Below, piece by piece: positions 1,260-28,754 of a DNA stretch of 64,000 bases. The stretch comes from Eledone cirrhosa. Its lineage: Eukaryota. The DNA lies in the NCBI GenBank assembly GCA_964016885.1, contig OZ024742.1:209560001-209624000 (forward strand), written 5' to 3'. Position numbers and translations under genes: made by a program. Below the pieces are notes generated by a model. The model searched no databases. It was not told the DNA's origin and saw only the letters and a list, made by a program, of their open reading frames with translations. Within the stretch, counting starts at the first letter, position 1. Each line of letters starts with the position of its first letter.

Positions 1260-1379
1260 GTTTACAATTGTTTCGCTACTCCATATAATATTTCTGGATC
1301 AGATGATTATATATCATAATTGATCTGGTTCAGTTGAAAATAATTAACATATATAAAAAACAGAGTGGCTCATCGGAAC
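1260..1379 (-). ncRNA. Type I hammerhead-like motif (CCGAUGA core, long stem II), left-arm copy
   Basis: Reverse complement of the motif at 2737-2856. Confidence 0.7.
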
Positions 1380-1946
1380 TCAAAGAAATATAAATTAAAA
1401 TAATGTTACATAATATAATGTTCCATATATTGGTTTTTACTATGGTGTCTTGGTTGCATCAGCTGTCAGCCATAATCAAGCAGTATTCATCTGTCGAGGC
1501 TGCATTGTGTGAGATCTGCCTATGGGTAACAAGATGGCTGCCAAAGGGCATATTTACCTTATTAATTAGAGGGTGGTTTCAGGGGAAGTAACTTCTCGAG
1601 AGATTAAAGATTGTGAGTATTTATAGTTAAGTGCTAGTTTTTAAATTTTTTAATTGAGAGACAATGTAGGGGAGGTAACTTATAATTATCGAGTTGTTCA
1701 TAGCAATTTAACTTATTAGCTACAAGTAGAAATGGGGCTACATGACTAAGTTGGGTCAAAAATTCTATTGGCGAATGAATTAGCCCTTCGATGTTGACAG
1801 CTAATGATTACCTCCGTTCTTTCGTTAATCGGTAGAAATCGTGATAGAGTTATGTAATATGCTTCCGTAACACAGAGATCACAAGATTTTCTTCGTCCAT
1901 TGAACGGTTGGGCCCTAGCCACGATATCCCATTTTAGTGAGTGTTG

Positions 1947-2330
1947 TACGTCCCTAATGCATGCCCATTAAATGGACACTGCCTGACACCCAACATAGTC
2001 TATAGGTGCACGGTTGAGACTGCTTCGAAAACCAGCTCTTATATCGGGTCTACCTCTAACCCTTTTAAGGTGCGCTATAACGCGCACTCTTTTTCTTTCC
2101 GAGACCCTAGCAACAGATGTTCGACATCGCTAGCTAGGCTCATTAAAAACCTTAAATTAAACAACATTCAACACTCACTAAAATGGGATATCGTAGCTAG
2201 GGCCCAACCGTTCAATGGACGAAGAAAAACCTTGTGTTCTCTATGTTACGGAAGCATATTACATAACTCTATCACGACCTCTACCGATTAACGATAGAAC
2301 GGAGGTAACCATTAGCTGTCAACATCGAAG
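1947..2330 (+). pseudogene. Penelope-like GIY-YIG endonuclease C-terminal fragment
   Basis: CPLNGHCLTPNIVYRC...YIGSTSNPFKVRYNAH...KWDIV...CSLC, homologous to the endonucleases at 17657-18151 and 19439-19620. Confidence 0.9.
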
Positions 2331-2736
2331 GGCTCATTCCTTCGCCTATAGAGTTTTTGACCCAACTTAGTCATGTAGCCCCATTTCTACTTGTAGCTAA
2401 TAAGTTAAATTGCTATGAACAACTCGATAATTATAAGTTACCTCCCCTACATTGTCTCTCAATTAAAAAATTTAAAAACTAGCACTTAACTATAAATACT
2501 CACAACCTCTAATCTCTCGAGAAGTTACTTCCCCTGAAACCACCCTCTAATTAGTAAGGTAAATATGCCCTTTGGCAGCCATCTTGTTACCCATAGGCAG
2601 ATCTCACACAATGCAGCCTCGACAGATGAATACTGCTTGATTATGGCTGACAGCTGATGCAACCAAGACACCATAGTAAAAACCAATATATGGAACATTA
2701 TATTATGTAACATTATTTTAATTTATATTTCTTTGA

Positions 2737-2856
2737 GTTCCGATGAGCCACTCTGTTTTTTATATATGTTAATTATTTTCAACTGAACCAGATCAATTAT
2801 GATATATAGTCATCTGATCCAGAAATATTATATGGAGTAGCGAAACAATTGTAAAC
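2737..2856 (+). ncRNA. Type I hammerhead-like motif (CCGAUGA core, long stem II)
   Basis: gtt-CCGATGA-gccactct...ggagtagc-GAAAC-AATT-GTA-aac. Stem I is gtt/aac, stem II closes with 7/8 pairs, and stem III has a palindromic loop. Confidence 0.7.
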
Positions 2857-3002
2857 GGACATTATTATTATTAATATTATTATTATTATTCTCTACATTC
2901 CTTACATCAAACTAAAATATGTTGACAATCTTTTAATAATGTCTTCCTTGTGAAGTTTGTGGTCTTGTTTTGCTTAACTAATGAATATATATATATATAT
3001 AT

Positions 3003-25976: not shown

Positions 25977-26148
25977 GGAGGTGGAGTGACTTAAATAGAT
26001 TAAGATTTATATCACTCTTATATATATATATATATATATATATATATATATATATATATATATATATATATATATATATATATATATATATATATATATA
26101 TATATATATATATATATATATATATATATATATATATATATATATATA

Positions 26149-27454
26149 CAGGATGTTCGGGATAAATTTGACAGAATAATATTTGGTTGTTTTTTCAGAT
26201 GTTTTAAATTCATTCATGCCCACTAGGCTTTATTTGAAAGTTTAAACCCTCCTTCATTCATATATGTGATGACAATGAGAATGGAGGACTGGGAGCCACC
26301 TGAATCATGAAAGAGAATAACTTGTATCATGATGATTCGCGCCGCCCATCAAAATAAGGAGATTATGATCGCTGCTCAATGCTCCCTGAACACTATAAAA
26401 GCAATGCGGCATGAACTGGAGAATTGCAATGGAGACTACGAGGCTGTGGCTAGAAGAAAGAAACATAACAGAAGATCTGATTGCTCTCGCACAGCAGAAT
26501 TCATGGAAATTCTACTGAAAAAAGTATTGGAGGACCCTGGCATCGGAATTCTGTCTTTGTCGCGTGAATTGAATGTTTCAGCCTCTACTATGAAAATTGC
26601 ACTCAATGAAGACCTTCGCTACTACTCATACAAGCGTCGCAGAGGTCAACTTCTCACAGAAAAGGCCCGCGAAAATCGTCTGACAAATGCAAAGAAACTT
26701 CTGAGCAAAGTGAAATATCCTGCTGAAGCACAAACAATCTGGTTCTTTTCCGATGAGAAAAACTTTTGCCAAGATCAAAAACACAACACGCAGAATAACA
26801 GATGACTTGCATACAGTTCAAAGGACACTCCTCGAGTCATGCAGACTAAATTTTCCCAAACTGTCATGGTTTTGGGATGTGTGTCCTCCGAGGGTGATGT
26901 GATGCCTCCGCATTTTTTCAAACAGTGTCTCAGGTTGAATTCAGATGCCTACGTGGAATTGCTAACCACTGTAGTTAAGCCCTGGATAACAAGGGTAGCC
27001 AATAATAGGCCGTATGTATGGCAGCAGGATTCGGCCCCCTGCCACACCTCGGGGAAAAGTAAAAAATGGATGTCAGCCAATTTTTACGACTACACCAGTC
27101 CCAATGTTTGGCCTCCGAACTCCCCTGATCTTAACCCGATGGACTATTATGTATGGGGCGCTGTAGAGAAAGACACCAATCGCCGTGCCAGTACTACAAA
27201 AGCCCAGTTAATCGACAGAATTAAAGTAGTTTTTGAGGGCCTTCCCAGGGAAAGTGTAAAATCAGCTTGCCTCAGGTTCTGGGCCCGGATTGAGACTGTA
27301 ATAGACGCTAATGGCGGTTATTTTGAGTAAAACTATTTGACAATAGTGTAATTTCCTCGTCCGTTGAATTTCTTTTAAATCAAATAAATTTTGTAGATAC
27401 CAAGCACTTTTTCTTTTTCCTGATGAAACTGTCAAATTTATCCCGAACACCCTG
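26149..27454 (+). mobile_element. Tc1/mariner DD37D (maT-type) transposon, full length
   Basis: 26-bp TIRs (caggatgttcgggataaatttgacag / ctgtcaaatttatcccgaacaccctg, 1 mismatch) with TA flanks. Motifs FSDEK, QQDSAPCH, SPDLNPMD, with 37 residues between the last two D. Confidence 0.96.
26281..27330 (+). pseudogene. DD37D transposase with two in-frame TGA stops (26308-26310, 26803-26805)
   Basis: ORFs 26329-26805 and 26839-27330 are in the same frame as ATG 26281. Confidence 0.9.
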
Positions 27455-27461
27455 TATATAT

Positions 27462-28608
27462 AGTAATAATAATAAATTTGAAGACTAAAATCCAAAGAAG
27501 GATCGATAAGGATAAATATATATCAAATATATAAGAAGCGTAGAGCAAGTATTTATTTCGGCTTGTAAACAGAAATTGCACAAAACTTTCTTGTATTACA
27601 GCCCCACATTATACCCTAACGGATAGTACGATCTATACGCGGATATTTTACGTCTTGATGTGGTAGCTAAGTATATGTTATGTTTATACCATTACTTATT
27701 TGCATAGGTAAGTATATATTACCTGTATGTTTTGTGAAGGTCCGTATACTTTCTCGTACGTATATTTGATTGTATATGTTATGGCGTATATTTTATATAT
27801 TCTGGTACATATGCTTTTGGTTATGTGTATACGTGAGTTTTGCGTCTGTGCGAGATTGCGTGTTCGTACGTTTGTAGGGTGTGTGTATATGTGTACTTCG
27901 TGTTTTGGTTGACGTAGACTCCGAACATTTGTGTATTTACATGTAAGTATGTGTGTGCGCTTGTTATATACGTATTTATTTATTTATATACGTTTATTTA
28001 ATTATTTATATACACGCACACACACCCACAAATTTTATATGTGCGTGTATTTGTATACCTCTGGCGAGTGTTTTCGCGTATGCTTGTGTATGTACGTATT
28101 TGGATACGTGTATGTACTTATTTAATTTCTCTTACCTCTGTATTTTATTTACTTTATTCTTAACTCTGAAGCGGAGAATCATTCGGTTTCCTAGTTAGAA
28201 TTTTAGTCTACGACTTCAGTTATAACATTTACGTGGTTTTAGCTTTGCGTGCAATTGTTCTCCACGCTCCACATATGAAGTATTATCTTCGCTCTTTCCA
28301 GAGAACGTCTTTATGAACCACCTAAGAGAATTAGTCTACGACTTCTTTTAAACGTGGTTCTGTCTTTGCGTGTAATTGGTTTTCACCGGTCCAAATAATG
28401 ACGTATTATATTCGTTTTTCCCCGTTCTTAGCCAGGGAAGGTTTCCATGAACCAAAGTATCGTCTTCCTGTCTTCCTCCGGTTGCAACGTTTTTTAAATA
28501 TTCACTTCTGCGTTTACAGATTGACTTTGTCAGTTTCAGAAGATCCCGTTAAGGGTGAAAGTAGCGATTCTTTGCTTAAACTTTAATCTGTTATTTTAAT
28601 AAATAAAT
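27462..28608 (+). mobile_element. Non-coding element sharing both ends with 54140-54351; degenerate hammerhead-like 3' end
   Basis: 27462-27556 matches 54140-54234 and 28541-28608 matches 54287-54351. CAGAAGA-tccc-gttaa-gggt-GAAA at ~28537-28560, then AATAAA and (TA)n. Confidence 0.65.
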
Positions 28609-28709
28609 ATATATATATATATATATATATATATATATATATATATATATATATATATATATATATATATAATTCACAAGAATCAAAGCTATGTTCAAAG
28701 CATGTATTC

Positions 28710-28754
28710 ACTTACAATTGTTTCATCCAAACCTAGGCTTGGTTTCTTCGGAGC
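28710..28754 (-). ncRNA. Type I hammerhead-like motif (CCGAAGA core)
   Basis: gct-CCGAAGA-aaccaagcctaggtttggat-GAAAC-AATT-GTA-agt. Same stem III as 2737-2856. Confidence 0.72.

Follow-up and report, generated by a model that had tools for sequence, protein, structure and literature searches.

Why hammerhead motifs in several repeat families should carry C in place of the conserved uridine at position 4 (U4) is the question raised by a 64,000-nucleotide stretch of Eledone cirrhosa DNA (G000:C3:209560001-209624000 of a 3.0-Gb genome, hereafter called the window), which is rich in (TA)n microsatellites and retroelement fragments. An earlier note on this DNA had described the CCGAnGA cores as a tolerated or selected variant recurring in four unrelated families. 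The motifs of the four families, here called A, B, C and D, fold as type I hammerheads, and each lies in sense orientation in the 3' repeat at the 3' end of a Penelope-like element (PLE). The base at position 4 is a family state: it is C in A and D, C in the majority of C and only sporadically C in B, and it is A in a further family, H. Within family C both C4 and U4 templates have been copied. The best explanation, to which a probability of about 0.58 is given on the sequences compared, is that the motifs may be slow, dimer- or protein-assisted PLE ribozymes in which the constraint on position 4 has been relaxed.

Hammerhead folds in the window

All five motifs have the type I order of helix I, core, helix II, GAAA, helix III, NUH site and helix I, and C3-G8, G5, A6, A9, G12, A13, A14, A15.1-U16.1 and H17 are present in each; the U of the CUGA uridine turn is what is missing. 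The C4 cores were confirmed where they had been reported, CCGATGA at 2740 (+) and 1376 (−) and CCGAAGA at 12896 (−), 16058 (+) and 28751 (−), as was the retention of GAAA and pairing stems, every C4 core being followed by helix II, GAAA, a palindromic helix III and a NUH site.

The family A fold occupies 2737..2856 (+), with the core CCGAUGA at 2740-2746, a helix I of 3 bp, a helix II (about 8 bp, a single C.A mismatch) that closes a loop of about 80 nt, a palindromic helix III of sequence ACAAUUGU and a predicted cut after GUA 2853. Its mirror motif at 1260..1379 (−), with CCGATGA at 1376, is not an independent occurrence, as the two motifs sit in opposite arms of a single fold-back insertion, whose arms (1128-1890 and 2226-2988) are 98 % complementary in the inverted-repeat listing, the only part of the repeat finder output that was used, the remainder being dominated by microsatellites. 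The family B motif is a minimal hammerhead at 12866..12899 (−), with the core CCGAAGA at 12896-12890, a helix I of just 2 bp, a helix II of 4 bp, ACGU as helix III and a predicted cut after GUC 12869. In family C, the C4 arm of a fold-back insertion carries a minimal hammerhead at 16055..16089 (+), with the core CCGAAGA at 16058-16064, a helix I of 3 bp, a helix II of 5 bp, AAUU as helix III and a predicted cut after UUA 16086; the other arm carries a U4 motif at 14812..14846 (−), with CTGAAGA at 14843 (arms 14697-14905 and 15996-16204). The family D fold at 28710..28754 (−) has the core CCGAAGA at 28751-28745, a helix II of 6-7 bp with one unpaired base per side, ACAAUUGU again as helix III and a predicted cut after GUA 28713. 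About 130 nt from it lies the family H fold at 28532..28582 (+), absent from the earlier note, with A4 in the core CAGAAGA at 28537-28543, a helix I of 5 bp, a 3-bp helix II flanked by U.U, a hairpin as helix III and a predicted cut after CUU 28577.

With a stem-aware descriptor demanding three helices and a NUH site, the window gave 7 sites (2740, 1376, 16058, 14843, 28751, 46199 and 53986) compared with 0.025 per shuffled window (40 dinucleotide shuffles); the hammerhead folds are real and far exceed the chance expectation. The family B motif at 12896 fails the descriptor solely through its 2-bp helix I. None of the 120 Rfam matches obtained in the window at E<=1 was to a hammerhead family, a test that is insensitive, since the U4 motifs at 7249, 46199 and 53986 were likewise missed. 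These three, at 7245-7281 (+), 46199 (−) and 53986 (−), are canonical U4 hammerhead folds of families M and I. A covariance model of family D found nothing beyond D in the window. No other letter was present at 2741 at a threshold of 5 % in public contigs of one study, perhaps from the source sample.

Position 4 as a family state

Alleles were counted with exact patterns in which positions 4 and 5 were left open, the first 100 listed matches being tallied by hand; DNA similarity searches, which return the best 40 candidates and favour the allele of the query, were therefore not used for allele counts. Among the first 100 matches, family A (297 copies) had 97 CCGA and one each of CTGA, CCAA and CAGA, family D (665 copies) had 97 CCGA, 2 CTGA and 1 CCAA, and an older D subfamily (910 copies) had 89 CCGA, 9 CTGA, 1 CGGA, 1 CAGA and 0 CCAA. 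Separate exact counts for family C gave 2473 CCGA, 912 CTGA and 70 CCAA. Family B (2572 copies) had 95 CTGA, 4 CCGA and 1 CTAA among the first 100; C4 in the window's copy is a minority allele of a U4 family, and C4 in B lies on at least four backgrounds, perhaps with one small copied sublineage. The genome-wide count of U4 and C4 that the earlier note had proposed thus gives C4 as the majority in A, D and C, and U4 with sporadic C4 in B, so that its reading of recurrent C4 as a tolerated variant rather than decay stands for the first three families and falls for B. Selection of C4, also suggested there, does not follow from the data, as both alleles of family C replicate and alternate on the tree, and U4 sister families are abundant in the same clade.

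A general pattern with ACAAUUGU as helix III gave 14,211 matches compared with 6 in the control, the first 100 of them comprising 51 D-type C4 motifs, 4 D-type U4 motifs, 44 motifs of family E (U4) and one doubtful case. Relatives with long helices (1159 matches, 37 in the control) include both U4 and C4 families. In 400 kb chosen without regard to the motif, 28 motifs were found, 24 with U4, 3 with A4 and 1 with C4, and U4 is therefore the majority state of the genome. No other A4 or G4 family with a helix III of the form RYRYRY was evident (156 matches, 114 in the control). Just downstream of the window (locus L240, minus strand, near 9877), another C4 family was observed, in which helix II is long and helix III is ACAAUUGU. 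A lone CCGA match at C1:26475240 was considered as a C4 family and was not counted, as it probably belongs to a long-helix U4 family.

The A4 motif of family H terminates a Hydra-type element. Its exact pattern matched 20,189 times, with A4 in every one of the first 100 matches, and another base stood at position 4 in just 213 copies (A4 in about 99 %); a looser pattern had 29,398 matches compared with 2 in the control. The substitution of about 1 % at position 4 suggests that the family is young. Hydra hammerheads in print typically have such a U.U flank (Craig et al. 2021, PMC8557442, File S2; this and the other sources below are cited from the parts available), and family H is on this ground probably a derived A4 form. 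Seven C4 copies of family H are clustered at G000:C3:139277339-139501845, probably through local segmental or tandem duplication, and a truncated family H fold-back lies at 54245-54332 of the window.

Alleles of family C and the discordant palindrome

As C4 creates a CpG, decay would be expected to give CTGA and CCAA about equally. That all U4 copies of family C are products of CpG decay is ruled out by the 912 U4 compared with 70 CCAA copies, by 10 U/U palindromes and by linked diagnostic bases. In the first 147 Mb of contig C1, the family C fold-back pairs were 19 C/C, 10 U/U, 2 C/U and 2 C/CCAA, a discordance lower than the 46 % expected for independent arms (p=1.6e-6), and the concordant C/C and U/U pairs indicate that both alleles served as templates. 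Long open reading frames (ORFs) lie upstream of both alleles (856 aa for C4, 825 aa for U4) and are 94 % identical. In a tree of 69 family C copies with positions 4-5 masked, the allele label required 8 changes compared with a shuffled mean of 19.7, at least 3 of the 8 changes being forced by supported branches; one supported C4 clade (100/99) is nested among U4 copies, and the U4 arm of the window lies inside a mostly C4 cluster.

The two arms in the window had been said to differ exactly at the core, and position 16059 is in fact one of 13 differences in 209 nt. Discordance between family C arms is about as frequent as CpG decay after insertion would make it, and the discordant palindrome of the window is most likely the result of a change from C to T after insertion; the earlier note had taken the less likely direction. 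Against this history, C/U pairs were more frequent among the best-hit loci of family C (4 of 13 multi-copy loci), and template switching between family C alleles is a conceivable further source of discordant pairs.

The host elements

The insertions of families A and C are fold-backs, in which two 5'-truncated ends flank endonuclease fragments, an architecture described for PLEs (PMC8557442). Truncated copies of B are in tandem, 4.7 kb apart, and those of A, C and H are inverted. Upstream of the family A motif and in sense with it, 1941..2291 (+) encodes a 3' fragment of the PLE ORF with a CxCX5C linker and a Hydra-type GIY-YIG domain, for which Pfam gave no match. C-terminal GIY-YIG fragments of the family C ORF were found with tblastn in both fold-back arms (15253..15579, ends approximate). 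The region 27555..28531 (+) holds the last codons and the 3' untranslated region (UTR) of a family H Hydra-type PLE, recognised by 87 % identity over about 1 kb to locus L187, where it follows the endonuclease ORF. Family D is represented in the window by the short 5'-truncated end of a Hydra-type PLE.

In longer copies, the motif is preceded by an open stretch of 599 aa in family A and by ORFs of 815, 856 and 502 aa in B, C and D. The full family C ORF, in locus L168, has RVT_1 and GIY-YIG domains (Pfam), and that of B has a weak RVT_1 match (Pfam) and YxG/CxxC by eye. In A, D and H the YRDD motif of the reverse transcriptase (RT) and endonuclease motifs were recognised by eye; Pfam had no match for the ORFs of A or of a further family, P. 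An RT tree (17 rows, no named references) placed A, D, G, H, I and P in one 100/100 group, with B and C outside. DKT is present in D, H, P and the ORF at 20282-21829 of the window, and the DKT region lies outside the family A fragment; the CxCX5C linker without CCHH is found in A, D, H and G, and (TA)n flanks in D and H. The marks of the Hydra clade are DKT instead of DKG, the CxCX5C linker, the absence of CCHH and (TA)n insertion (PMC8557442), and by these motifs A, D and H carry Hydra-clade marks. The Neptune clade, considered for A, D and H, was dropped given DKT, the CxCX5C linker, the lack of CCHH and the (TA)n targets.

The endonucleases of A and D are 37 % identical, as distant as other pairs in the group, and the tree data neither establish nor reject a monophyletic A plus D (p-AU 0.231). 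The two are divergent members of one PLE clade by the RT tree and shared motifs, and the four families are to that extent not all unrelated, contrary to the earlier note. Families B and C are DKG-type, with the linker Cys motif in C; B presumably resembles Penelope/Poseidon, and C may resemble Neptune or Nematis.

Comparison with known hammerheads

Metazoan PLE minimal hammerheads cut weakly and as dimers only (Cervera and De la Pena 2014, PMC4209133). The motifs described here are like them in their position in a 3' repeat, on the sense strand, with a palindromic helix III, an extra base after A9 and AU-rich flanks, and also in their thousands of 5'-truncated copies and their tandem and inverted pairs. 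They are unlike them in having C4 or A4 as a family state, whereas U4 is present in 56/56 representatives in Fig. S3 of that paper, which states the bias of its search descriptor; the catalysis-preserving U3-A8 swap is the only core variant described in the parts of it available. The elements are like Hydra-clade PLEs in DKT, the CxCX5C linker, the lack of endonuclease CCHH, CxxC and CxH near the C-terminus and (TA)n targets, and family H is like Hydra-clade hammerheads in the U.U pair flanking helix II (PMC8557442). The core is ctga in 26/26 Hydra rows of File S2 of that paper, unlike the C4 of A and D and the A4 of H, and the loop 2 of about 80 nt in family A also sets it apart.

The C4 core itself is known from RNA replicons. 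A viroid U4C variant had much lower activity in vitro and was yet infectious (PMC3088659), CCGA occurs in four variants, and the change in the peach viroid did not abolish cleavage (PMC9608096). CCGA is also found in zeta virus ZV1 and betaviroid-like RNAs, a CCGA hammerhead of ZV1 cut in vitro at the expected site, and ZV1 cut in both polarities (10.64898/2026.09.16.752053). The core change is thus the same as in the natural U4C hammerheads of peach latent mosaic viroid, CtaHVd-LR1, ZV1 and betaviroid-like RNAs, where it is compatible with cleavage, and as U4C is known as an active natural variant, the loss of U4 makes the motifs less canonical without making them less likely to work as hammerheads do. 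Unlike those RNA-replicon hammerheads, which are often rare variants and of type III in ZV1 and betaviroid-like RNAs, the present motifs are DNA-encoded and of type I, with C4 fixed, weak helices and hundreds to thousands of copies.

The hammerhead of a Poseidon PLE of Anolis carolinensis was cut only with the PLE protein (Frangieh et al. 2024, PMC11167929). It shares the location in a PLE pseudo-LTR (pseudo-long terminal repeat), and its chaperone mechanism could carry a weak core; protein assistance was shown for it and would be a prediction for the present families. The available text of PMC7229834, PMC3376415 and 10.64898/2026.07.22.740005 holds nothing on position 4.

The published literature searched contained no report of C4- or A4-fixed PLE families, and on that literature the fixation of C4 in genomic PLE families, and the A4 family, are new. 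Arkhipova and colleagues reportedly made relaxed-core searches in Terminons in 2017, a survey that may list such cores.

Mechanism and alternative explanations

If the motifs are slow, assisted ribozymes, U4 would be the ancestral state, replaced at family level by C at least twice (in C and in A plus D) and by A once. Pairing between two motifs of one transcript would take place through the palindromic helix III, with the PLE protein as folding chaperone, and the motif would trim the tandem precursor transcript of the element. As fast cleavage would be unneeded for insertion, a weakened uridine turn would be cheap for the element.

Ten families could be linked to an ORF (A, B, C, D, E, G, H, I, O and P), and in all of them the core is kept at the same place while the helix sequences differ; endonucleases are only 30-50 % identical between families that retain the complete core and all three helices in UTRs that otherwise differ. 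An alignment of 57 rows of family D shows pairing in 90.4 % of its cells, and at one pair of helix II A-U and G-C are exchanged in 11 rows; the core is constant, with variation at positions 7 and 17, in loop 2 and in the bases next to helix II. Family G carries the published U3-A8 swap in its core.

Several observations weigh against this explanation. The conservation of the D core is biased, as loci were mostly fetched with core patterns (3/73 rows were incidental), the covariation in D helix II is probably one inherited change, the 10.1-11.1 pair is not fixed in D, helix I is broken in some D copies, and in A, B and C it is only 2-3 bp long. The five monomer folds all failed to beat their shuffles (z −0.87 to +1.31), and the dimer predicted for family A is in an inactive register, with U-C3-C4-G5 paired to a CGGA further downstream. 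No motif was found with the descriptors used in six ORF clusters, several of which are interrupted at the 3' end, nor with the descriptor in the 5 copies of the family of the ORF at 3518-4270 of the window. Among the best-hit loci of family C, 4 C/U pairs were present in 13 multi-copy loci, the window included, which is above the contig C1 lists. In a mutational scan, single and double changes of CUGA gave low activity except for the 3-8 swap (PMC9901934), and the literature search found no report of an active A4 hammerhead. The active fold was not the ground state in minimum free energy folding, and as modelled, energy folding neither favours nor rules it out.

It is possible, if only tentatively so on these comparisons, that in this lineage the role of the uridine turn has passed to the PLE protein and that C4/A4 motifs would cut only inside their own ribonucleoprotein (RNP). 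Rather unlikely is a non-catalytic handle, serving dimerisation via the palindromic helix III or as a binding site for the PLE protein, in which the uridine turn would be free to change. Such a handle would agree with the fixation of A4 in the most abundant family measured and with the invariance of ACAAUUGU in D, for which an 8-bp duplex of −6.4 kcal/mol was computed. In Anolis, catalytic mutants left insertion in vitro unaffected and RNA ends at the cut site were not observed (PMC11167929), and Naiad PLEs thrive without canonical hammerheads (PMC8557442). A handle would not, however, account for the retention of G5, A6, G8, A9, G12-A14, A15.1-U16.1 and a non-G position 17 in the families seen, or for the swap in family G, which preserves catalysis (PMC4209133); C4 hammerheads cut in other replicons, and the helix III of family H is a hairpin with no palindrome.

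The retained core also bears on whether the motifs are dispensable relics, with C4/A4 as neutral lesions riding on successful source elements in a first step of decay. This is improbable: distant families keep the complete core and its helices in differing UTRs, D helix II covaries, and decay should hit core positions besides 4, though the descriptors would miss families without a core. Minority C4 on at least four backgrounds in family B, the weak helices of several families and the proposal that hammerheads may merely parasitise PLEs (PMC8557442) are what such decay would predict. Very improbable, finally, is positive selection of C4/A4 to slow cleavage and so spare uncut tandem RNA as template for reverse transcription. 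Although it lies in a CpG, C4 has been retained in D subfamilies with different bases at positions 7 and 17 and different flanks, the supported C4 clade among family C U4 copies suggests a U-to-C change that spread, and unprocessed RNA was the main insertion substrate in vitro in Anolis (PMC11167929). CpG decay is, however, modest (70 CCAA compared with 2473 CCGA), so the persistence of C4 needs no selection; the U4 sublineages of C also replicate, and U4 dominates the 400 kb of unselected DNA. Slow, dimer- or protein-assisted ribozymes with a relaxed position 4 are thus preferred.

Other features of the window

Two more Hydra-type PLE fragments lie at 18366-21829 (−), one with a 516-aa RT stretch and an interrupted 3' end. 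A family G hammerhead with a UUGAAAA core (U3-A8) and a long hairpin helix III is present at 16742-16838 (−), after an ORF fragment at 17657-18211 (−). Downstream of the GIY-YIG ORF at 3515-4360 (−), the 3' half of a G-like hammerhead at 3010-3075 (−) has no recognisable 5' core upstream; either it is a truncated end that became nested, or its family lacks a core. A perfect hairpin at 53499-53808 with 155-bp arms and no spacer, in which CTGAAGA begins 5 nt from the axis on each strand, is probably another fold-back PLE end.

A four-unit tandem array of a dispersed repeat of about 200 bp, similar to short interspersed nuclear elements, is found at 33778-34573, with copies of the repeat near 12543-12730, 16410-16520, 32812-32972, 50800-50968 and 57299-57474. 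The window also holds a broken Tc1/mariner-type transposase (DDE_3), an unassigned transposase-like ORF pair and two RT fragments of the long interspersed nuclear element type, at 26311-27330 (+), 24486-25566 (−), 35640-38367 (+) and 9075-10308 (−).

Implications

Thousands of motifs per genome escape searches that require CUGA, which cannot detect family H at all; about half of the sampled matches to the general ACAAUUGU pattern were C4. If the uridine turn has indeed been replaced by the PLE protein, the C4/A4 motifs, including those of a young family of more than 20,000 copies, would be protein-rescued ribozymes en route from RNA to RNP catalysis. The need of hammerhead cutting for PLE mobility has been stated to be unclear (PMC8557442). 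The genome offers matched natural sets, namely C4 and U4 alleles within one active family (C), families in which C4 is fixed, and at least 20,000 copies of an A4 family alongside U4 sister families in its clade, and with such sets in one genome the question of cutting versus mobility becomes directly testable.

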